Shown here: positions 1,466-14,064 of the stretch, piece after piece | Layout of the letters: the number at the start of each line of letters is the position of its first letter | Position numbering within the stretch: the first letter of the stretch is position 1 | Notes under the pieces: generated by a model | What the model saw: the letters and a program-made list of their open reading frames with translations, nothing else | Database searches by the model: none | What the model was told of the DNA's origin: nothing | Made by a program: the position numbers and the translations under genes | IMG/VR virus record: IMGVR_UViG_2563366799_000001 | Reading direction: 5' to 3' (one strand) | DNA from: a virus | Lineage: Duplodnaviria > Heunggongvirae > Uroviricota > Caudoviricetes | Length of the DNA: 14,064 nucleotides

Positions 1466-2992
1466 TCAAAAATGAACCTCACCATCAACCATATATTTGA
1501 GAGTACTTATCGCCTGCTGGGCGGATATTGTTTTCATTAAAGGATAGTGTTTAAAAACAATGCCATTCATAAAATAGATATCACAGGTTTTATTATCTGT
1601 ATTGATTATGATTTTTTCGAATGTTTTATAGGCAAGTGTACGACATAGCTCTCGCCCATTTTTACTGGTTAAGTCAATAGCATGAAAATCACCAAGTGAA
1701 CTCACCGCTTTACTCTTCAAAGTTTTTAATGATACCGAAGCCCTTCGTAATTCCTTATCTAATACTCTGATTTTTTCTGCTATAGCGGTAACTTCAGGCG
1801 CGACAGACAATGCAACGATTAAATTATTAATTTTCATCTGAAGCTCAATAATTTTTAACTCTAAAGTTTCATTAGCATCTTTCTTGTTTTCAACTGGTTG
1901 AATTTTGCCACAATTAAAAAGCAATTCATTAATGATATTATAATCAACCAAATCTCTTTTTATTGATGGCCTGTCACATCGATGTAATCTTCTCATCGGA
2001 CAAACATAATAGCCATGCAAACTTCCAGATACCGCATGAACAATCATGGTATTACCACAAGCCTCACACTTCATAACTGTTCGAAGTAGATTTATTAGCA
2101 TAGGATTCTTGCTACTATTGCTAATACCAAAAGGTGCCAACCGAATTTCCTGTACAGCGTAAAACAAATCATCTGATATGACTCTGGGATAATAGCCAGC
2201 GATTTCACTTATCCCTTTCCCTCTTGCACGATATGAAGGTACGCATATACCTATCAGAGCTTTATTCGCTAATAATTTTTCAATTACAGAAGGCCCCCAT
2301 GCACTTTCTTTTCCTGAGAAATTCTTTACAGCATGATCATTTAAATACTTGGCTATTGCATTCAATGAGCGCCTTTCCATCCTGAGTTTAAAAATTAGCT
2401 CAATAGTTTTCACCCTGTCGGGGTCTGGAACAAAGGCCGTTCTTTTGTCATCTAAGGAGAGCCATCTCGGACAAGACGCCGTCATAATCGTACCTGATTC
2501 CAGTGCATCCTGCCGTTTTTTCTTCCATGATAATTTAACCCGACTTGACTTTATCTCGCTTTCTTCATTTGCCCTTTGTGCTATAAGTATGGCTTTTATT
2601 AATGAATATGGCTCATTCAAAGAGTCAATATTATAGACTGTATTGTCGCAAAGAGTTATAACATCAATACCGTGATTCAAAATCAATTTCAGACGTTCAA
2701 TCGCTTCACCGACTTTTTCTCTTGAAAGTCTGTCCAGACTTTCAACTAACAATGTAGTTCCTGGCAATATATAACCATGCTCTATAGCATCTAAAAATTC
2801 CGAAAAAGCTCCTGATTGTGCATGCTTTCCTTTGAATGCACTTAATCCTAAATCTTCATATGTTATGGTATCAAGATAATAATCACTATTTACCTTTAAC
2901 CATTCAGCAATAAGTCTTCTCTGTCGGTTTAATGAGTCGCCAGACATCTGACCTGGTGATGAAAATCGCATATATGCTATGGCTTTTTTCAT
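1466..2992 (-). CDS. ybcK: large serine recombinase (resolvase-type catalytic domain, recombinase domain, zinc-ribbon), YbcK-like
   Basis: 508-aa ORF. N-terminal YMRFSSPGQ matches the serine-recombinase catalytic motif; C-terminal cysteine cluster CEACGNT ... YYVCP ... HRCD. AGGTG ribosome-binding site 5 nt upstream. Same length and same position next to emrE as DLP12 ybcK. Confidence 0.88.
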   Translation of the reverse strand: MKKAIAYMRFSSPGQMSGDSLNRQRRLIAEWLKVNSDYYLDTITYEDLGLSAFKGKHAQSGAFSEFLDAIEHGYILPGTTLLVESLDRLSREKVGEAIERLKLILNHGIDVITLCDNTVYNIDSLNEPYSLIKAILIAQRANEESEIKSSRVKLSWKKKRQDALESGTIMTASCPRWLSLDDKRTAFVPDPDRVKTIELIFKLRMERRSLNAIAKYLNDHAVKNFSGKESAWGPSVIEKLLANKALIGICVPSYRARGKGISEIAGYYPRVISDDLFYAVQEIRLAPFGISNSSKNPMLINLLRTVMKCEACGNTMIVHAVSGSLHGYYVCPMRRLHRCDRPSIKRDLVDYNIINELLFNCGKIQPVENKKDANETLELKIIELQMKINNLIVALSVAPEVTAIAEKIRVLDKELRRASVSLKTLKSKAVSSLGDFHAIDLTSKNGRELCRTLAYKTFEKIIINTDNKTCDIYFMNGIVFKHYPLMKTISAQQAISTLKYMVDGEVHF

Positions 2993-3569: not shown

Positions 3570-4014
3570 AGCATATTCTTTCCTGTTCAAACTGGAGAGA
3601 ATTGTACTACAGATTGAACTCAACTCACCGGTTTCATCATTGTGTATCCATTGATGTTCTTTTGTATACCCTCAATATCCGTTTCATCGCGGTACTCCGG
3701 CGACACTCCTTAAAAATCAGGTTCGGCTCACCTTTCCTGCCCGTTCTCCCCGGGTAGCAAACCGATAATACACCGTTCGCCAGTCCTTACTATCAATGAC
3801 CAAGATTCCTGCCCATATCATTTTAGCCGCAGCCTAATTTATGCTGGTTATTGTTACGTGTGAATTCAGTTAGCTGCATAAATTGTCACGGAAGTGATAC
3901 ATCGATATTATCGAGAAATTCACTCGAATTTATACGATTGAAACTGCACTTATATCTGTTTTAAATACTCCGAACACTCTTTACAACAACTGTGTGAAAA
4001 TGGAGATAATTAAA

Positions 4015-4743
4015 ATGAAAAAGGGTTTGGCTATTTCATTCATTGCCGCCGTGTGTGCATTTGCTGCAAATGCGAGTGCTGAGGAAAGTAAAAACGGGTT
4101 TTATCTAACCGGTAAAGCCGGTGCCTCTGTGGCGTCGTTATCAGACCAGCGTTTTCAGTATGATGAAGGCGATTGGTCAACTGGATTTAAGGGCAGCAAC
4201 AACCATGACACGGCGTTTAGTGGTGGTATCGCAGCGGGTTATGACTTTTACCCACAGTTCAGTATTCCTGTTCGTACGGAGCTTGAATTTTATGCCCGCG
4301 GAAAGGCTGATACAGAATACAATCTTTTTAAGGACGACTGGGTGCGAGCTGACATGAAGAATGAGGTGTCAGTCAACAGCCTGATGTTGAACGCGTACTA
4401 TGACTTCCGGAACGACAGCGCATTCACCCCTTGGGTGTCCGCAGGGATTGGTTATGCAAGAATTCATCAGAAATCAACGGGTGTCATCACCTTCGATAAT
4501 GGATACGGATACAGTGACCGCGCATCTGATTCCCGTTCAGATTCTTCTGATAACTTCGCATGGAGCCTTGGTGCTGGCGTCCGCTATGACGTAACTCCAG
4601 ATGTCAGTCTGGACATCAGTTATCGCTACCTGGATGCAGGTGATGCCAATGTGACTTATACCGATGATTGGGGCGATAAATATAAATCAGATGTTGATGT
4701 AAAAAGTCATGACATTATGCTTGGTGTAACCTATAACTTCTGA
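4015..4743 (+). CDS. outer-membrane beta-barrel protein with signal peptide
   Basis: Start at internal ATG 4015 (MKKGLAISFIAAVCAFAANASA-EE signal peptide with AxA cleavage motif) preceded by GGAG. Alternating aromatic/hydrophilic beta-strand pattern and C-terminal ...GVTYNF, the terminal-Phe signature of outer-membrane barrels. Confidence 0.8.
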   Translation: MKKGLAISFIAAVCAFAANASAEESKNGFYLTGKAGASVASLSDQRFQYDEGDWSTGFKGSNNHDTAFSGGIAAGYDFYPQFSIPVRTELEFYARGKADTEYNLFKDDWVRADMKNEVSVNSLMLNAYYDFRNDSAFTPWVSAGIGYARIHQKSTGVITFDNGYGYSDRASDSRSDSSDNFAWSLGAGVRYDVTPDVSLDISYRYLDAGDANVTYTDDWGDKYKSDVDVKSHDIMLGVTYNF

Positions 4744-4790
4744 ACAAACCTTTTCTAAATTATAATTACACGCTTACTGTGATTAACTAA

Positions 4791-4826
4791 AGCCCCCTGC
4801 AATATATTGCTATGGGGGGCTCTTTC
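4791..4826 (+). terminator. putative rho-independent terminator after the outer-membrane protein gene
   Basis: GC stem GCCCCC / GGGGGC around a 16-17 nt loop (TGCAATATATTGCTA), followed by a short T-containing tract (TCTTTC). About 48 nt after the stop codon. Confidence 0.45.
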
Positions 4827-5144
4827 GCTCATCGTGCAGGATGATTTTTGCCTAATTCCGTTATCACCACAATAATATTCATCGACATTTTCTTAATGGA
4901 CACCTGAAAATATTTTATCGGGTAATATTCCGAGATTTTATTGTTTTTATTCTTTTCCGTTATCTCTGATAATATTGTAAGCATCCGGTGAACTCGCCTT
5001 GCGTGGACTAGCCAGTCGTTGTAGCACTGACGCCGCTGCGTTGAGTTCTTTTTTTCGCCATCAGCTCTCCTGCTTCTGTAGATAAAGAAGAGACAGAAGA
5101 ATGGCGTTGATCACAACGACCAGTAATGCGAATTCATCGGCCCC

Positions 5145-5237
5145 TCACACTGTTACAGCTGATAGTGCAACAACCTCCAACGCACAGAAGCTCTTATGCG
5201 TCCCCAGGTAATCAATAATTGCCTCTTTGCCCGTCAT
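5145..5237 (-). pseudogene. ren: ren remnant (30 codons, premature stop)
   Basis: ATG overlaps the P stop codon (ATGA) as in lambda. Translation MTGKEAIIDYLGTHKSFCALEVVALSAVTV* matches the lambda Ren N-terminus (MTGKEAIIHYLGTHNSFCAPDVAAL...) then terminates. Confidence 0.55.
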
Positions 5238-6414: not shown

Positions 6415-6534
6415 AGTGCCTTTACCCGTGCATTTGATGACGATGTTGAGTTTCAGGAGCGCATGGCAGAACACATCCGGTACATGGTTGAAACCATTGC
6501 TCACCATCAGGTTGATATTGATTCAGAGGTATAA
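6415..6534 (+). pseudogene. gam: gam 3' fragment (last ~40 codons, no start)
   Basis: Plus-strand frame reads ...[39 protein letters not shown], matching the lambda Gam C-terminus. Ends 5 nt before the bet start, as in lambda. Confidence 0.75.
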
Positions 6535-6539
6535 AACGG

Positions 6540-7325
6540 ATGAGTACAGCACTCGCAACGCTGGCTGGGAAGCTGGCTGAACGTGTCGGCATGGATTCTG
6601 TCGACCCACAGGAACTGATCACCACTCTTCGCCAGACGGCATTTAAAGGTGATGCCAGCGATGCGCAGTTCATCGCATTGTTGATCGTCGCCAACCAGTA
6701 CGGCCTTAATCCGTGGACGAAAGAAATTTACGCCTTCCCTGACAAGCAGAACGGCATCGTTCCGGTGGTGGGCGTTGATGGCTGGTCCCGCATCATCAAT
6801 GAAAACCAGCAGTTTGATGGCATGGACTTTGAGCAGGACAATGAATCCTGCACATGCCGGATTTACCGCAAGGACCGTAATCATCCGATCTGCGTTACCG
6901 AGTGGATGGATGAATGCCGCCGCGAACCATTCAAAACCCGTGAAGGCAGAGAAATCACGGGGCCGTGGCAGTCGCATCCTAAACGGATGTTACGGCATAA
7001 AGCCATGATTCAGTGTGCCCGTCTCGCCTTCGGATTTGCGGGTATCTATGACAAGGATGAAGCCGAGCGCATTGTCGAAAATACCGCATACACTGCAGAA
7101 CGTCAGCCGGAACGCGACATCACTCCGGTTAACGATGAAACCATGCAGGAGATTAACACTCTGCTGATTGCCCTGGACAAAACATGGGATGACGACTTAT
7201 TGCCGCTCTGTTCCCAGATATTTCGCCGCGACATTCGCGCATCGTCGGAACTGACACAGGCCGAAGCAGTGAAAGCTCTTGGATTCCTGAAACAGAAAGC
7301 CTCTGAACAGAAGGTGGCTGCATGA
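6540..7325 (+). CDS. bet: Red beta single-strand annealing protein (Bet)
   Basis: 261-aa translation [38 protein letters not shown] ... EQKVAA matches lambda Bet from recall; stop overlaps the exo start. Confidence 0.96.
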
Positions 7326-8002
7326 CACCGGACATTATCCTGCAGCGTACCGGGATCGACGTGAGAGCTGTCGAACAGGGGGATGATGCGTGGCACAAAT
7401 TACGGCTCGGCGTCATCACCGCTTCAGAAGTTCACAACGTGATAGCAAAACCCCGCTCAGGAAAGAAATGGCCTGACATGAAAATGTCCTACTTCCACAC
7501 CCTGCTTGCCGAGGTTTGCACCGGTGTGGCTCCGGAAGTTAACGCTAAGGCGCTGGCCTGGGGAAAACAGTACGAGAACGACGCCAGAGCCCTCTTTGAG
7601 TTCACTTCCGGCGTGAATGTTACTGAATCCCCGATCATCTATCGCGACGAAAGTATGCGCACCGCCTGCTCTCCCGATGGTTTATGCAGTGACGGCAACG
7701 GCCTTGAACTGAAATGCCCGTTTACCTCCCGGGATTTCACGAAATTCCGGCTCGGTGGTTTCGAGGCAATAAAATCGGCTTACATGGCCCAGGTGCAGTA
7801 CAGCATGTGGGTGACTCGAAAAGATGCCTGGTACTTTGCCAACTATGACCCGCGCATGAAGCGTGAAGGCCTGCATTATGTCGTGATTGAGCGGAATGAA
7901 AAGTACATGGCGAGTTTTGACGAGATGGTGCCGGAGTTCATCGAAAAAATGGACGAGGCACTGGCTGAAATTGGTTTTGTATTTGGGGAGCAATGGCGAT
8001 GA
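7322..8002 (+). CDS. exo: lambda exonuclease (Red alpha, 5'-3' dsDNA exonuclease)
   Basis: 226-aa translation [47 protein letters not shown] ... FVFGEQWR matches lambda Exo from recall. Confidence 0.96.
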
Positions 8003-8181
8003 AGCATCCTCACGATAATATCCGGGTAGGCGCGATCACTTTCGTCTACTCCGTTACAAAGCGAGGCTGGGTATTTCCCGGCCTTTCTGTTACCCGAAAT
8101 CCCCTGAAAGCACAGCGGCTGGCTGAGGAGATAAATAATAAACGGGGAGCTGTATGCACAAAGCATCTCCTGTTGAGTTAA
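7993..8181 (+). CDS. lambda orf60a-like small hypothetical protein
   Basis: 62-aa [29 protein letters not shown]... directly after exo with overlapping start, the position of lambda orf60a. Confidence 0.55.
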
Positions 8182-8345
8182 GAACGAGCATTGAGATGGC
8201 ACATAGCCTCGCTCAAATTGGAGTCAGGTTTGTGCCAATGCCAGTAGAAACAGACGAAGAATTTCATACGTTAGCCGCATCCCTTTCACAAAAGCTGGAA
8301 ATGATGGTGGCGAAAGCAGAAGCAGATGAGAGAGACCAGGTATGA
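8154..8345 (+). CDS. lambda orf63-like small hypothetical protein
   Basis: 63-aa [26 protein letters not shown]..., next in the series of small early-left ORFs. Confidence 0.55.
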   Translation: MHKASPVELRTSIEMAHSLAQIGVRFVPMPVETDEEFHTLAASLSQKLEMMVAKAEADERDQV

Positions 8346-8421
8346 CAACCACTGAATGCATTTTTCTGGCAGCGGGCTTCATATTCTGTGTGCTTATGCT
8401 TGCCGACATGGGACTTGTTCA

Positions 8422-8637
8422 ATGACACCTCAGCAAGAAAACGCCCTTCGCAGTATTGCCCGTCAGGCTAATTCTGAAATCAAAAAAGCCAGACAGCAGT
8501 TTCCGGATAAAAACGTCGATGACATTTGCCGTAGCGTACTGAAGAAGCACCGCGAAACGGTAACGCTGATGGGATTCACACCGACTCATTTAAGCCTGGC
8601 GATCGGCATGTTAAACGGCGTCTTTAAGGAGCGATGA
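8422..8637 (+). CDS. lambda orf61-like small hypothetical protein
   Basis: Internal ATG at 8422 (MTPQQENALRSIARQANSEIKK...) chosen over the track start 8356; the upstream 22 codons look non-coding. Confidence 0.5.
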   Translation: MTPQQENALRSIARQANSEIKKARQQFPDKNVDDICRSVLKKHRETVTLMGFTPTHLSLAIGMLNGVFKER

Positions 8638-8658
8638 ACATGAAAAGCAAAATCATCA

Positions 8659-8682
8659 GGGAGCTACAGGCTCCTTTTTTAT
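8659..8682 (+). terminator. putative rho-independent terminator
   Basis: GGAGC-TACAG-GCTCC hairpin (8660..8674) followed by TTTTTT ATT. Confidence 0.5.
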
Positions 8683-8735
8683 TATTCGCATTCACCCTCA
8701 AGCGTATTAACCAACAATTCAGGGATTAATGGAAG

Positions 8736-8954
8736 ATGGCAGACATCATTGATTCAGCATCAGAAATCGAAGAATTACAGCGCAATACAGCAATAAAAAT
8801 GCGTCGTCTGAACCACCAGGTTATATCTGCCACTCATTGTTGTGAGTGTGGCGATCCCATAGATGAACGAAGACGCCTGGCCATTCAGGGTTGTCGGACT
8901 TGTGCAAGTTGCCAGGAGGAGATCGAACTTAAGAACAAACAATGGGGATTGTGA
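8736..8954 (+). CDS. TraR/DksA-family C4-type zinc-finger protein
   Basis: 72 aa with CCECGDPIDERRRLAIQGCRTCASCQ (CxxC-17-CxxC) near the C-terminus, typical of phage TraR/DksA-like proteins. GGAAG ribosome-binding site. Confidence 0.7.
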   Translation: MADIIDSASEIEELQRNTAIKMRRLNHQVISATHCCECGDPIDERRRLAIQGCRTCASCQEEIELKNKQWGL

Positions 8955-9001
8955 TGGCCTCAAAGCAGCAAATTTCAACATCGTCCAACTGAGGTGTAAA
9001 A

Positions 9002-9280
9002 ATGTTCAGAATCATTTTTCCTAACACCTGGTACGTCGACCACCACGGCACTCCCTGCAAAATCCTGCGTTCTACCCACAACAAAGTTCACTACATCCGA
9101 AAAGGCAGAACATGTATCGCCAGCATGTTCCGCTTTAATCATGACTTTGAACCTGTGAATAAAGCTGATGCAGATCGGATAGCAGAAGAGATCGAAACGG
9201 CAGAACACATTAAGAAGTTACGTGACATGCGTTCAAAAAGCAGAGGTAACCATGGAATCATACAGCCTCACACTCGATGA
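9002..9280 (+). CDS. hypothetical prophage protein (92 aa)
   Basis: Complete ORF with strong GAGGTG ribosome-binding site 5 nt upstream; no recognisable motif. 3' end overlaps the xis start. Confidence 0.45.
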   Translation: MFRIIFPNTWYVDHHGTPCKILRSTHNKVHYIRKGRTCIASMFRFNHDFEPVNKADADRIAEEIETAEHIKKLRDMRSKSRGNHGIIQPHTR

Positions 9281-9602
9281 GGCCTGTCAGTTTCTCAAGA
9301 TATCCAGACCTACCGCTACCAACTGGATACGAACAGGCCGCCTACAGGCAACACGCAAAGACCCCACTAAACTAAAATCTCCTTACCTCACAACACGACA
9401 AGCCTGCATTGCGGCGCTTCAGTCTCCGCTGCATACTGTCCAGGTGAGCGCGGGTGATGGCATAACAGAGGAAAGAAAATGTCACTCTTCCGCAGAGGTG
9501 AAATATGGTACGCCAGTTTCACATTGCCGAACGGTAAAAGATTTAAACAGTCTCTTGGAACAAAGGACAAAAGGCAGGCGACAGAACTCCATGACAAGCT
9601 AA
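9252..9602 (+). CDS. xis: excisionase (P22-type Xis, 116 aa)
   Basis: Internal ATG 9252 ([32 protein letters not shown]..., helix-turn-helix) preceded by GAGGT. Sits immediately upstream of int and overlaps it by about 124 nt in another frame. Confidence 0.65.
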
Positions 9603-10642
9603 AGGCTGAAGCATGGCGGGTCAGCAAACTTGGTGAAATACCTGATATAACGTTCGAGGAAGCGTGTGTCAGGTGGCTTGAAGAGAAAGCACATAAAAAA
9701 TCACTGGACGATGACAAAAGCCGGATCGGATTCTGGCTTCAACATTTCGCAGGAATGCAACTAAGAGACATTACTGAATCAAAAATTTATTCAGCAATGC
9801 AGAAAATGACGAACCGGCGTAATGAGGAAAACTGGAAACTCAGGGCAGAAGCATGCAGAAAAAAAGGGAAACCTGTTCCAGAATACAAGCCAAAACCAGC
9901 GTCTGTTGCAACGAAGGCTACGCATCTTTCATTTATAAAAGCCCTACTAAGAGCCGCAGAGCGTGAATGGAAAATGCTGGATAAGGCACCAATTATTAAA
10001 GTGCCTCAACCAAAGAATAAACGGATCCGCTGGCTGGAGCCCCATGAAGCACAAAGGCTGATTGATGAATGTCCGGAGCCATTAAAGTCTGTTGTTGAAT
10101 TTGCACTGGCAACAGGCTTAAGACGCTCGAACATCATCAACCTTGAATGGCAACAAATAGATATGCAGCGCCGGGTGGCATGGATAAACCCGGAAGAGAG
10201 TAAATCAAACCGCGCAATCGGCGTTGCGCTGAATGATACTGCATGTCGCGTATTGAAAAAACAAATCGGGAATCATCACCGTTGGGTATTTGTGTACAAG
10301 GAAAGCTGTACCAAACCAGACGGAACGAAAGCGCCAACAGTAAGGAAGATGCGGTATGACGCAAACACAGCCTGGAAAGCGGCGCTGAGACGGGCTGGTA
10401 TTGATGATTTCAGATTTCACGACTTGAGACACACCTGGGCAAGTTGGCTGGTTCAAGCCGGAGTCCCGTTGTCAGTGTTACAGGAAATGGGAGGCTGGGA
10501 GTCTATCGAAATGGTTCGTCGATATGCTCACCTTGCACCTAATCACCTTACCGAACACGCACGGCAAATAGACTCGATCCTGAACCCATCGGTCCCAAAT
10601 TTGTCCCAGTCAAAAAATAAGGAAGGTACTAATGATGTGTAA
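9479..10642 (+). CDS. int: P22/DLP12-type tyrosine integrase
   Basis: 387-aa ORF. N-terminus [34 protein letters not shown]; catalytic-domain motifs [12 protein letters not shown] (HxxR) and VRRYAHL (Tyr). 3' end abuts a tRNA-Thr 3' fragment, the P22-family att arrangement. Confidence 0.93.
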
Positions 10643-10656
10643 CTTATTGATTTAAA

Positions 10657-10708
10657 TGGTGCCGATAATAGGAGTCGAACCTACGACCTTCGCATTACGA
10701 ATGCGAAG
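10657..10708 (-). other. 3' fragment of tRNA-Thr(CGU) (thrW-type att core); 5' half of the tRNA absent
   Basis: Reverse complement reads ...TCGCATTCGTAATGCGAAGGTCGTAGGTTCGACTCCTATTATCGGCACCA: anticodon stem-loop with CGU anticodon, variable loop, T arm, acceptor 3' strand and CCA. Sequence to the right does not continue as the D arm or 5' acceptor strand. Confidence 0.8.
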
Positions 10709-10790
10709 TTTTTATATTTTAACTGCTTGAACAACCATCAGAAATCACAAATTTATCATTTTAAATCATAATATTAAAACAAAAAACCTG

Positions 10791-10820
10791 TTGATGTAAA
10801 TTGATGAGTGTTGATGTTTA
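10791..10820 (+). repeat. three tandem 10-bp-phased TTGATG repeats upstream of the second integrase
   Basis: TTGATGTAAA / TTGATGAGTG / TTGATGTTTA at 10791, 10801 and 10811, about 70-100 bp upstream of the int ATG at 10889. Confidence 0.6.
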
Positions 10821-10888
10821 TCCTTTCAATTTACTTACACCAGCCGTTACATTACTGTAAACCGTAATCCCCAACAGGAACCCTAAAA

Positions 10889-12208
10889 ATGGCGCTTTCA
10901 AGACAAAAACTAACCTTCGAACGAATTCGAAGATTTACTTTACCTGAAGGGAAAAACCAAGTTTTCCTTTGGGATACGGACGTAACAAGCTTGGCATGTC
11001 GAGCAACTCGTGGAGCAAAAGCCTTTGTATTCCAAAGCCTGTATGCGGGAAAAACCCTTCGCATGACCATTGGCAACATTAACGATTGGAGGATTGATGA
11101 TGCGAGGGCCGAAGCCAGGCGACTGCAAACATTAATCGATACTGGGATAGATCCGCGTATAGCTAAGGCGGAAAAAATTGCTGAAGCGGAATCACAGCAG
11201 GCTGAATCTCGTAAAACGAAGGCAACCTTTTCAAGCGCTTGGGAAGATTATCTTGATGAATTGAGAACCGGAATCAGCGCAAAAACTAAACGCCCCTACT
11301 CTGCACGCTACATTGCCGATCACGTTAACTTGTCCAGTCGTGGAGGCGAAAGTAAAAAAAGAGGCCGGGGCCCAACCTCACCTGGGCCACTGGCTAGCCT
11401 GCTCGACCGACCATTATCAGAACTAACACCAGAGAACATTGCCGAATGGCTAAGTACAGAGAGACAAAATCGGCCTACCGTCACTGCTCATGCCTACCGT
11501 CTGTTGCGTGCATTCATCAAATGGGCTAATTACCAGAAAAAATATCAGGGAATAATCGATGGCGATCTTGCACAAGATCATAACGTGAGAAAAATGGTTC
11601 CAATATCAGCGAGCAAAGCGGGAGATTGCTTACAAAAAGAACAGCTCAAAAGCTGGTTCAGTGCCGTGCGTAGCCTCAATAATCCCATTGCATCAGCCTA
11701 TCTCCAAGTGCTTTTGCTCACCGGTGCACGGCGTGAAGAAATTTCCTCACTTCGCTGGTCTGACATAGATTTCAAATGGTCAAGCATGAGAATTAAAGAC
11801 AAGATCGAAGGCGAGCGAATTATCCCCCTCACTCCCTATGTTTCTGACTTGTTACGCTCACTGATGGAGATCCCCAATCGTGGTACAAACGAGGAGAATT
11901 GGGTTTTCAGAAGTAACAGCAAAAGTGGCAAAATTATTGAACCGCGTTCAGCACATAATAGAGCATTAACTCGCGCGGAGTTACCACATATCAGCTTGCA
12001 CGGATTGCGCCGTAGTTTTGGGACCCTCGCTGAATGGGTCGAAGTACCAACAGGTATTGTTGCGCAGATTATGGGCCATAAGCCTAGCGCTCTTGCTGAA
12101 AAGCACTATCGCCGCCGTCCATTAGATTTGCTAAGAAAATGGCATGAAAAAGTTGAATTATGGATCTTAGAAGAAGCAAAAATAAAAAACAACGTTGATA
12201 AGCGTTGA
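10889..12208 (+). CDS. P4-type tyrosine integrase
   Basis: 439-aa ORF. C-terminal catalytic motifs LHGLRRSFGTLAEW and KHYRRR (Tyr); long N-terminal arm-binding-type domain. Unrelated in sequence to the upstream P22-type Int. Confidence 0.88.
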   Translation: MALSRQKLTFERIRRFTLPEGKNQVFLWDTDVTSLACRATRGAKAFVFQSLYAGKTLRMTIGNINDWRIDDARAEARRLQTLIDTGIDPRIAKAEKIAEAESQQAESRKTKATFSSAWEDYLDELRTGISAKTKRPYSARYIADHVNLSSRGGESKKRGRGPTSPGPLASLLDRPLSELTPENIAEWLSTERQNRPTVTAHAYRLLRAFIKWANYQKKYQGIIDGDLAQDHNVRKMVPISASKAGDCLQKEQLKSWFSAVRSLNNPIASAYLQVLLLTGARREEISSLRWSDIDFKWSSMRIKDKIEGERIIPLTPYVSDLLRSLMEIPNRGTNEENWVFRSNSKSGKIIEPRSAHNRALTRAELPHISLHGLRRSFGTLAEWVEVPTGIVAQIMGHKPSALAEKHYRRRPLDLLRKWHEKVELWILEEAKIKNNVDKR

Positions 12209-12225
12209 TTTTATCAAATATCAAC
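12194..12225 (+). repeat. GTTGAT direct repeats (10-bp spacing) followed by inverted copies, at the 3' end of the integrase gene
   Basis: GTTGAT at 12194 and 12204, then ATCAA at 12213 and ATCAAC at 12220, forming an imperfect palindrome that overlaps the int stop codon. Same motif as the array at 10791..10820. Confidence 0.55.
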
Positions 12226-12247
12226 AACTTACATAAAATCACATGTG

Positions 12248-12275
12248 TTGACAGAAATTTTTTTTCAGTTATCTT
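12248..12275 (+). promoter_or_regulatory. putative sigma70 promoter for the downstream operon
   Basis: Consensus -35 TTGACA at 12248..12253, 16-bp T-rich spacer, -10-like TATCTT at 12270..12275. Not verified. Confidence 0.3.
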
Positions 12276-12322
12276 TTATTACTGCTAACTACATTCACTC
12301 ACTAAGCAGGAGATTAACTACA

Positions 12323-12748
12323 GTGACTAACCCAATAACTGTATCAAGAGAAGACCGAAGTGCGGAAATCAGAGCGAGATGGGGTTTACATCCGACTAAA
12401 AACAAAAGTTCTAATTTTTGGGAAACAACAATTCAGCGTTTTAATAATAGTAGTACTGACCGAATACTACCTCTTTGGCACCGTGTTTCAAAACTTTTAG
12501 TTGCTATTAGGAATGTAGTCAATACTATAACATGCCCTTTTCCACCAAAGGGGAATACTTCCCGCTCACGCCGAAGTTCAACAACGTCATCAAAAAACTC
12601 ATCATCATCTTCATCGGATGGTAGTAGTAGCGACCCCGATCCCGATAGAGACCCCATATTCACCCCTTTTCATTTCATTCTTTCATCTCTGTTAAAAACA
12701 ATGATCGTCTTATTTGCCCACATATCAAATGTTGGGGTGATGAAATGA
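12323..12748 (+). CDS. hypothetical protein with Ser/Asp-rich low-complexity segment (GTG start); coding strand uncertain
   Basis: GTG at 12323 preceded by AGGAG 10 nt upstream; stop overlaps the next gene's ATG (ATGA coupling). Contains SRSRRSSTTSSKNSSSSSSDGSSSDPDPDRD. An antisense ORF (12433..12663) with an acidic stretch is an alternative. Confidence 0.3.
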   Translation: MTNPITVSREDRSAEIRARWGLHPTKNKSSNFWETTIQRFNNSSTDRILPLWHRVSKLLVAIRNVVNTITCPFPPKGNTSRSRRSSTTSSKNSSSSSSDGSSSDPDPDRDPIFTPFHFILSSLLKTMIVLFAHISNVGVMK

Positions 12749-12966
12749 GCGATATCAAACATCAAAAACCCTCTCAGTCACAACTAATTTCTACCCGCGA
12801 GTTAGCTAATATTATTGGCTATGAAGTACAAACTATTCGAGCTTGGCTTTGCAAAGACAAACTGCCTAATGGTTTACCGCGACCGAAGAAAATTAAAAAC
12901 CGACACTATTGGTCACGTAAAGACATTGATAGATACCTATTAACCTTCTCAGTATATAGTAACTAA
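12745..12966 (+). CDS. AlpA-like helix-turn-helix phage regulatory / excisionase-family protein
   Basis: 73 aa. ISTRELANIIGYEVQTIRAWL then LPRPKKIKNRHYWSRKDIDRYL, the same pattern as AlpA (HTH followed by FPKK...W...EIDEWL). Position just downstream of a P4-type integrase is typical. Confidence 0.6.
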   Translation: MSDIKHQKPSQSQLISTRELANIIGYEVQTIRAWLCKDKLPNGLPRPKKIKNRHYWSRKDIDRYLLTFSVYSN

Positions 12967-12977
12967 TAGAGGCCTCC

Positions 12978-13003
12978 CCCGGCTATTCTAAAGAATAGCC
13001 GGG
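12978..13003 (+). terminator. perfect 11-bp-stem hairpin (possible terminator or protein-binding palindrome)
   Basis: CCCGGCTATTC-TAAA-GAATAGCCGGG, 12 nt after the AlpA-like stop; followed by TTAGTTAAT (weak U tract). Confidence 0.4.
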
Positions 13004-13088
13004 TTAGTTAATACAAACCTTCCATTAACAATGGGGGGAGATTAATACTATTTATCACATCTCACATTAACAAAATTCAAGGTCACAT

Positions 13089-13853
13089 ATGAAAAAACGC
13101 ATCACTTTCAGCGTAAACAATAGTTCTACTATTGATGCAATTGACGACTATAGCAATGCAAAAGGATACTCCAGGTCAGAGGTGATATCATTTTTATTAA
13201 ACGCCACAGTCCCAGCATTGAATAAAATAACATCGCAATATCATATAGCTCAAACTTTGGAGTCAACATTAGGCTGTATTTTTGAAGAGAAGGCCCCGTC
13301 AATAGCACGGGGGGAGCCAAAATTAACTTACGAAGAGTTTTTTCATTCCGTCTGGAACACTCACATTCGACACCGGAACGAGGTTATCGACCAGAATTTT
13401 TATGCACACAAAATATCTCATGATAAGATGGGGAAGAGTGAAAAAAAATTAATTCATGAAAAGCTCACATACATTATAAAAAGCTTCAATGTAAAAAAAG
13501 CAATTTTTATTTACACAGATCGGCGCGTGAACCACAAACATCTAATTGCAGGAGGGTTGTCAAATATCATACTGATAAAGGAAACAGTTTACGATGGTTG
13601 TTTTTTTGATTTGAGCAGCATTGTGATTATGCCAATCTTTGAACTTATTACATTTGGAATTGAAGAGGTATTGAAAAGAAATAAAATCCACCATAAACAA
13701 TCATGCTATTGCTGGATACCAATTTATTACACAAATGATCTAGCGGTAATGGTCCCGGTGATTGCCGAAGGCGATACACCTCAAAAGGCGATGAAAGGAG
13801 GAGATGCCATCATTATTAACCCCTTTAACGGTGAAGTAAACCATACTTTCTGA
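13089..13853 (+). CDS. hypothetical protein, N-terminal ribbon-helix-helix-like motif plus ~200-aa domain of unknown function
   Basis: 254-aa ORF with AAGG ribosome-binding site. N-terminus MKKRITFSVNNSSTIDAIDDYSNAKGYSRSEVISFLL fits the CopG/Arc-type RHH pattern (beta-strand then helices). Remainder unrecognised. Markedly AT-rich relative to the prophage genes. Confidence 0.65.
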   Translation: MKKRITFSVNNSSTIDAIDDYSNAKGYSRSEVISFLLNATVPALNKITSQYHIAQTLESTLGCIFEEKAPSIARGEPKLTYEEFFHSVWNTHIRHRNEVIDQNFYAHKISHDKMGKSEKKLIHEKLTYIIKSFNVKKAIFIYTDRRVNHKHLIAGGLSNIILIKETVYDGCFFDLSSIVIMPIFELITFGIEEVLKRNKIHHKQSCYCWIPIYYTNDLAVMVPVIAEGDTPQKAMKGGDAIIINPFNGEVNHTF

Positions 13854-13935
13854 TACCAATGTTAAGCATAACCACTTAGTTGCATACATCTCGACAGTAT
13901 GGAGTTAGTACCTAATAGCTTGATGAGGGTAAAAG

Positions 13936-13972
13936 ATGCCTACTAACAAAGCAAAATCAAAGAAAATTCTAG
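13936..13972 (+). pseudogene. 5' stub of a gene (12 codons) cut off by IS5
   Basis: GAGGG ribosome-binding site, then ATG at 13936 encoding MPTNKAKSKKIL; the IS5 end starts at 13973 and the frame stops shortly inside it. Confidence 0.35.
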
Positions 13973-14064
13973 GGAAGGTGCGAATAAGCGGGGAAATTCT
14001 TCTCGGCTGACTCAGTCATTTCATTTCTTCATGTTTGAGCCGATTTTTTCTCCCGTAAATGCCT
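13973..14064 (+). mobile_element. IS5 terminal segment (partial copy, body extends beyond window end)
   Basis: GGAAGGTGCGAATAAGCGGGGAAATTCTTCTCGGCTGACTCAGTCATTTCATTTCTTCATG..., the IS5 terminus; exact inverted copy of bases 1..92. Preceded by CTAG (YTAR target). Confidence 0.92.

Follow-up and report, generated by a model that had tools for sequence, protein, structure and literature searches.

A piece of tRNA-Thr sequence at positions 10657-10705 of a 14,064-nt DNA (the window, i.e. the whole stretch that was analysed) lies between two integrase genes, and it raises the question how the 3' part of a tRNA gene came to stand there without its 5' half. An earlier note on this DNA read the arrangement as two integrative elements stacked at the thrW site, or alternatively as the work of a second element that had displaced the tRNA 5' half. 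Based on comparisons with phages and complete E. coli genomes we conclude, with a probability of about 0.9, that the fragment is a hybrid recombination junction resulting from two independent insertions at the 3' end of thrW, each mediated by an integrase.

The thrW fragment and the att core

Read on the minus strand, positions 10657-10705 give CGCATTCGTAATGCGAAGGTCGTAGGTTCGACTCCTATTATCGGCACCA, which is identical at 49 of 49 positions to the last 49 of the 76 nt of thrW, the gene for tRNA-Thr(CGU). The annotated tRNA-Thr beside proA in E. coli C600 (L004 6012-6087) was used as the thrW reference. The matched part runs from the 5' strand of the anticodon stem, with the CGU anticodon included, to CCA, and it lies 14 nt past the prophage integrase gene, as had been described for a copy of ~50 nt. 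Judged on the sequence, an exact match of 49 nt to thrW cannot be due to chance. The 5' 27 nt of thrW are missing beside the fragment, in agreement with the earlier description, and ARAGORN gave no tRNA calls across the whole window. The fragment is identical to thrW rather than to another tRNA, and it does not form the complete cloverleaf with a paired acceptor stem that is expected of a functional thrW. When further copies of the core were sought in the window, with up to 6 mismatches in 40 nt allowed, only one copy was present, so the opposite end of the prophage lies outside the window.

The general tRNA model of Rfam scored 36.3 bits at 10660-10732 on the minus strand, over its gathering score of 29. 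In this alignment a false 5' half and D arm are taken from the AT-rich flank, and two acceptor pairs are broken. Automatic pipelines relying on Rfam could annotate a false tRNA or pseudo-tRNA at this position, and the fragment should not be called a tRNA gene despite the above-threshold score. The non-tRNA Rfam matches in the adjoining spacer were at chance level only. The AT-rich flank was also considered as a decayed thrW 5' half, and this was rejected by shuffle tests: the 40 nt replacing the 5' half aligned locally to that half no better than shuffled sequences (p = 0.15), and the K-12 island arm compared with the thrW 5' half was likewise not significant against shuffles (p = 0.06).

Among the E. 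coli genomes compared, 5017 carry the 49-mer, at 7587 places in total and at most 4 per genome, and it is annotated as tRNA-Thr; this fits the description of thrW as being among the most used tDNA integration hotspots (PMC7545054). Three copies of the core were found in SH19PTE6. In K-12 the same fragment is known as ptwF, which is absent from the MG1655 feature table used; the name was taken from PMC2951348 and PMC13170351. Comparison of the arms indicates that the fragment does define the att core of both elements, as was proposed, with 46 nt in common with the attP of SfIV and 49 nt with the island arm.

The similarity between the arms continues beyond the core into the region 10639-10656, which holds the int stop (TAA, with the end of a Cys codon before it) and the 14 nt up to the fragment. 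The sequence past CCA is TTTAAATCAATAAGTTAC in the window, TTAAAATCAAATTGTTAC in the K-12 thrW flank and TTAAAATCAAAGAGTTAC in the K-12 ptwF flank. A looser similarity of 17-18 nt past CCA (TTAAAATCAAnnnGTTAC) was found among the phage arm, the island left arm and the chromosomal flank (L004, L005 and L009), so that the effective att similarity extends past the tRNA-derived core. The third base following CCA shows a T-to-A difference that is common to the window, ECONIH4 and one SH19PTE6 copy. Megablast matches to genomes that carry only the island begin at 10639.

On the plus strand, positions 10688-10708 form a perfect 9-bp hairpin (CTTCGCATT ACG AATGCGAAG), followed by TTTTTATATT (to 10718). 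The hairpin is made of the tRNA anticodon arm read antisense, with three extra bases contributed by the island arm; together with the sequence that follows it is terminator-like, and it lies directly downstream of the phage int gene. A UACG motif is present on the antisense strand within the same stem-loop. The antisense transcripts thrW-as and ptwF-as were listed among candidate sites for A-to-I editing by TadA in a 2026 paper, where the ptwF-as site failed Sanger validation (PMC13170351).

The prophage side

The integrase gene to the left of the fragment (9479-10642, plus strand) encodes a protein of 387 aa and reads toward the att site. Its product has a tyrosine recombinase catalytic domain (PF00589, E = 3.4e-48) and is, over the full 387 aa, 99.5% identical to the SfIV integrase, 97.9-99.0% identical to those of SfII, SfI and SfV and 89.9% identical to P22 Int, which bears out its earlier description as a P22-type integrase. 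The gene ends with TAA at 10640-10642 and is separated from the fragment by 14 nt (10643-10656), its 3' end abutting an attP core that is identical to the 3' end of thrW.

A putative xis gene (9252-9602, plus strand) overlaps the start of int. Its assignment as excisionase-like is based on homologous position and on a weak domain match, in which the ORF 9222-9602 scored 27.6 bits against the excisionase domain TIGR01764 (cutoff 28.8). The protein at the equivalent position is annotated as an excisionase in SfIV and as a helix-turn-helix protein in Ec1119. The block 9252-10702 is 98.3% identical to SfIV, and the int-side att sites of SfIV, SfII, SfI, SfV and P22 have in common with the window the int stop 14 nt from the core, the 46-nt thrW identity and the overlap of xis and int.

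Further to the left are lambda/DLP12-type early genes, for replication protein P, bet, exo and a ybcK-type serine recombinase. On this gene content, the window contains the int-bearing end of a lambdoid prophage whose integration module is of the Sf/P22 type. The prophage body, with ybcK, P, a replication protein, bet and exo, is lambda/DLP12-like and in this respect differs from the Sf and P22 phages; no O-antigen modification genes were seen in the prophage body within the window. None of the complete E. coli genomes compared with the whole window covered more than 69% of it, and from the sequence comparisons the prophage is a mosaic.

The ybcK homologue inside the prophage (1466-2992, minus strand) encodes a large serine recombinase of 508 aa with Resolvase, Recombinase and zinc-ribbon domains, and is the third site-specific recombinase gene in the window. 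Between it and the replication gene P, in the region 3850-5171, lies an ORF (3994-4743, plus strand) for an outer-membrane beta-barrel protein of 249 aa, with OMP_b-brl, Opacity and OmpA-like Pfam matches. Related prophages in Ec1119 and SH19PTE6 carry emrE and ren at the place of this ORF, which looks like a swap of cargo genes.

The island side

To the right of the fragment, positions 10706-10888 align with the K-12 spacer between ptwF and intF, and represent the integrase-proximal att arm and promoter region of an island. This spacer of 183 nt has a GC content of 29%, compared with 44% for the window, and corresponds to the AT-rich segment that had been noticed in place of the tRNA 5' half. 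The hexamer TTGATG occurs three times at an exact spacing of 10 nt (10791, 10801 and 10811; gTTGATGtaaaTTGATGagtgTTGATG, 10790-10816), just upstream of the island integrase gene, and GTTGAT of the first and third copies is conserved in K-12. We regard these repeats as candidate Int binding sites of the island integrase. In K-12, the region between ptwF and intF drives intF and is repressed ~23-fold by IntF (PMC2951348).

The island integrase gene (10889-12208, plus strand) reads away from the att site and encodes a tyrosine integrase of 439 aa with an arm-binding domain (PF13356, E = 1.7e-10) and a catalytic domain (PF00589, E = 2.7e-18). The protein has 89% identity to IntF of CP4-6, a cryptic element of K-12, with the alignment starting at Met26 of IntF. 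It is followed, all on the plus strand and in the K-12 order, by a yagN-like gene at the same place after the integrase gene (12245-12748; 30% identity to K-12 YagN, E = 2e-11), a gene for a small helix-turn-helix protein like YkgV (12745-12966; 66% identity to K-12 YkgV, PF12728 HTH_17) and a yagM-like gene (13089-13853; 32% identity to K-12 YagM over 248 aa, E = 2e-44). The yagM-like product, WP_008321066, is annotated in ECONIH4, AW1.7 and MS6192, and the ykgV-like protein is a candidate for the excisionase or a regulator of the island. The integrase, the thrW fragment, the homologous arm and the order yagN-ykgV-yagM all place the island in the CP4-6 family (IntF type).

In ECONIH4, AW1.7 and MS6192, the NCBI pipeline labels the intF-like gene a pseudogene, noting an internal stop. 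The integrase ORF has an in-frame ATG further upstream, at 10814, but the frame read from there meets TAA at 10865-10867. The 439-aa ORF starting from the ATG at 10889 keeps both domains and looks complete, and because it aligns from Met26 of IntF and retains both domains, the gene is probably intact and should probably not be called a pseudogene. The annotated start of K-12 IntF may accordingly lie 25 codons too early.

This second integrase had been described as P4-type, and part of that description stands. P4 Int also has 439 aa, with an arm-binding N-terminal domain and a catalytic domain, and its gene reads away from a tRNA-derived core that lies 151 nt upstream, compared with 183 nt in the window. 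The presence of PF13356 with the catalytic domain and the divergent orientation of the gene relative to the att core thus agree with the P4 type in direction, domain layout and geometry. The sequence relationship is weak, however: identity to P4 Int is 25% over 129 aa only (pairwise E = 3e-5), P4 was not among the tblastn matches at 1e-5 in the phage collection, the target tRNA is another one, and the arm repeats of P4 (GGGGGCAT type) are absent in the window. The name P4-type was therefore dropped in favour of IntF-like, IntF being the nearest relative at 89%.

The two integrases had further been called unrelated. They do not have significant pairwise similarity (E = 0.057), but both are tyrosine recombinases (PF00589), so that the word can only mean that they belong to different subfamilies.

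A hybrid junction

The junction was resolved with an alignment of four sequences: the window, the attP of free-phage SfIV, the int-thrW-proA region of Ec1119 and the yagP-ptwF-intF region of K-12. From int to 46 nt of the core (10657-10702, ending in ACGAAT) the window equals the SfIV attP with one mismatch. Past these 46 nt, SfIV goes on into its own distal arm (TATAAGAATCC), whereas the window reads GCGAAGTTTTTATATTTTAACTGCTTGAAC and the K-12 ptwF-intF region GCGATGTTAATGCATTTTTAACTACTTGAGC. Beyond the identity with SfIV the window has 3 more tRNA-identical bases, as in the K-12 ptwF copy, and then GAAGTTTTTATATTTTAACTGCTTGAAC, which is homologous to the K-12 ptwF-intF sequence GATGTTAATGCATTTTTAACTACTTGAGC. 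At the same breakpoint in Ec1119, the 5' half of thrW follows. The common core is thus bordered by one arm of each element, and in sequence terms the junction is the far-end att site of the island fused to the int-side att site of the prophage. With its phage arm to the left and its island arm to the right, the fragment looks like the boundary between two separately integrated elements.

Occupancy of thrW in E. coli genomes

Each element occurs alone in complete genomes. In Ec1119, which carries only the phage, a complete annotated tRNA-Thr, proA and proB come after the same int (DNA identity of 97.9% over 6418-10705). In AW1.7, which carries only the island, paoD, yagP' and the fragment are followed by the same intF-like allele (99.2%). 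K-12 has the island only as well, in the order paoD-yagP-fragment-intF and, 34 kb away at the other end, an intact thrW beside proA. The tandem state was found with a 151-nt query spanning both arms, which matched over its full length in 7 of 5426 complete E. coli genomes. The match was 100% identical in two of the seven (ECONIH4 and CAVP776), and the other five have a K-12-type island arm; in one of these, CFSAN051542, int and then intF are annotated. An assembly artefact is unlikely, the identical junction being present in two independent complete genomes. The hybrid junction, together with complete genomes in which the island, the phage or both occupy the site, supports the earlier suggestion that two elements are stacked at thrW.

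The locus can be followed over its full length in ECONIH4, which has the identical junction. It starts with proB, proA and an intact thrW, followed by an island of ~44 kb between thrW and the intF-like gene that contains sucrose-utilisation genes, remnants of conjugation genes and many IS elements. Then come the intF-like gene, the 49-nt fragment, the phage int and the prophage. At the far end of this prophage a 46-nt fragment with an Sf-type distal arm abuts a CP4-6-like remnant, with its ykfI side first. ECONIH4 thus has three elements in a row and three copies of the core, namely the intact thrW and two fragments.

The part that ECONIH4 (L001) has in common with the window is limited to 9252-13978 (xis and int, the junction and the first part of the island), at 98.7% identity. 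The prophage to the left of xis in ECONIH4 is another one, with a head of the HK97 type and a contractile tail. The presence of one integration module and junction on different phage bodies suggests either replacement of the prophage body by recombination or repeated insertions at one site.

The island arm was also found with other partners. In MS6192 (L006 5900-6060) the same arm and thrW fragment are joined to other small elements. When a 40-mer of the island arm and core was compared with species-representative genomes, one match was obtained, to a metagenome-assembled Enterobacteriaceae contig (L010 1340-1480). There the arm and fragment recur beside yet another flank, and the core has lost 1 nt. 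These different flanks indicate that more kinds of element than the phage and the CP4-6-type island use the thrW site.

Proposed mechanism

Tyrosine integrases that target tRNA genes recombine an attP containing a duplicate of the tRNA 3' end with the chromosomal copy. After such integration, one end of the element has the rebuilt tRNA and the opposite end a 3' fragment.

At thrW, each of the two integrases would recombine its own attP with the chromosomal 3' end of the tRNA gene, giving one copy of the core per element end. For the island, the fragment would end up beside its own integrase gene, and for a phage of the Sf/P22 type, int would end up beside whichever copy of the core was recombined with. 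The far-end copy of the island, equivalent to ptwF, would be a good target for a P22/Sf-type phage integrase. A phage inserting there would place int against the fragment and keep the int-proximal arm of the island on the opposite side. In the orientation of the tRNA, the resulting order would be proA, intact thrW, the island of the CP4-6 family, the intF-like gene, the island arm and the 49-nt core, and then phage int, the lambdoid prophage, a further copy of the core and the next flank. We infer that the layout in the window's own genome is the one predicted by this tandem model. The tRNA gene should not have been lost, with the intact copy lying at the proA end of the island. Since each element keeps its own arms at both ends, each is expected to be still able to excise alone; excision of the phage would restore the attR of the island, and excision of the island would restore a normal thrW-int junction.

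Insertion order and alternative explanations

Because CP4-6-type islands are widespread and riddled with IS elements (with the K-12 type in five of the seven tandem genomes), we lean towards the phage having been inserted second. The same tandem could have arisen in the reverse order, with the prophage entering thrW first and the island then entering the thrW that had been rebuilt at the int-side junction. As reasoned from the att arms, the end structure would be identical either way, and the core contains no sequence marker that separates the two orders. The only experimental precedent found also points in this direction, with SfI having entered at the attL of SfX, which is the site with the intact tRNA (PMC3306764), and the island allele of the window is less decayed than CP4-6, with its proteins annotated in other enterobacteria too. 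However, island-only genomes with a paoD-yagP' flank are common, with the K-12 type filling the matches listed, and five of the seven tandem genomes carry an old, IS-riddled CP4-6 of the K-12 type that is unlikely to be a recent mover. We consider the reverse order possible, though the less probable of the two.

That both integrase genes belong to one contiguous element, with the fragment as an internal relic, could be argued from the block 9252-13978 (xis, int, fragment, intF-like gene and three island genes), which is common to the window and ECONIH4 at 98.7% while the rest differs. The two halves nevertheless occur singly at the same locus with the expected flanks, in Ec1119 on the one hand and in AW1.7 and K-12 on the other, and the int side is the attP of the free phage SfIV, which makes a single element very improbable. 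We give just as little credit to the idea that the strain lost this tRNA gene when its 5' half was destroyed by the island or through a deletion. The missing 5' 27 nt beside the fragment and the lack of a tRNA call in the window would fit such a loss. The flank is, however, homologous to the normal island arm between ptwF and intF in K-12, where thrW is intact 34 kb away, and thrW is also intact beside proA in ECONIH4, with the identical junction. Moreover, the breakpoint falls exactly at the end of the 49-nt identity of the island, as site-specific recombination predicts. The suggestion that a second element displaced the tRNA 5' half is for these reasons not upheld: what stands in its place is a normal island arm, with the intact gene at the other end of the island in ECONIH4.

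A functional meaning of the arrangement could also be imagined. It might couple read-through upon phage induction to the IntF-repressed promoter, and so to excision or regulation of the island in a satellite-like manner, or the pseudo-tRNA might serve as a landing pad that spares the tRNA gene. We regard this as highly unlikely, and the terminator-like hairpin at 10688-10708 argues against simple read-through from the phage int-xis region. If the coupling were true, a P4-related island would be dependent, like a satellite, on a neighbouring helper phage.

Comparison with known systems

The closest counterpart of the island side is the attR of CP4-6 in K-12, for which the divergent ptwF-intF arrangement has been described in MG1655 (PMC2951348). 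It has the same 49-nt fragment, a homologous AT-rich arm, an integrase of 89% identity reading away from the core, and homologues of yagN, ykgV and yagM in the same order. On its other side, the K-12 fragment borders the chromosome (yagP-paoD), whereas in the window it borders a prophage integrase gene. The DNA identity of the window to K-12 is ~82% and stops at 12241, and the cargo differs too, the ECONIH4 relative being a sucrose-utilisation island. On the phage side, the difference from the int-side att of the Sf and P22 phages is that the partner flank in the window is the island arm and not the tRNA 5' half.

Tandem integration at thrW has been published before. In S. flexneri, SfI integrates at the attL of a resident SfX at thrW to give a tandem pair (PMC3306764), and tandem prophages at thrW have been reported in O157:H7 (PMC9997748). 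In both cases the elements are arranged head-to-tail at thrW with an att copy between them, as in the window. SfI and SfX are two phages of one group of Sf serotype-converting phages, whereas the window combines a phage with a non-phage island; compared with that pair, the two integrases in the window are of different subfamilies and their genes face one fragment from opposite sides. Every component of the arrangement is also known: the fragment is ptwF, the island integrase is an allele of IntF, the phage module is of the Sf/P22 type, and the junction is present in public genomes.

The window adds one more case showing that the leftover att copy of a resident island can be the junction shared with an element that uses a different integrase. 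That leftover att copies are usable as junctions is part of why thrW is a hotspot. The relevance is mainly for annotation, and no open question is made newly testable. The fragment is the exact boundary between prophage and island, and merging both into one "prophage region" would be a wrong annotation.

The ends of the window

The first 92 nt (1-92) and the last 86 nt (13979-14064) of the window are the same IS5 terminus in inverted orientation, 98-99% identical to the K-12 IS5 end. The adjoining bases, TTAG at the left end and CTAG at the right end, resemble IS5 target sites, and the window looks like a whole contig broken in IS5 copies. An intact thrW and the outer att copies of this genome would lie beyond the window. 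Of the two IS5 insertions, one is in the prophage and the other splits the island immediately past the yagM-like gene. At this point in the island, ECONIH4 is without an IS, and AW1.7 has a different element of the IS5 family (ISKpn26).
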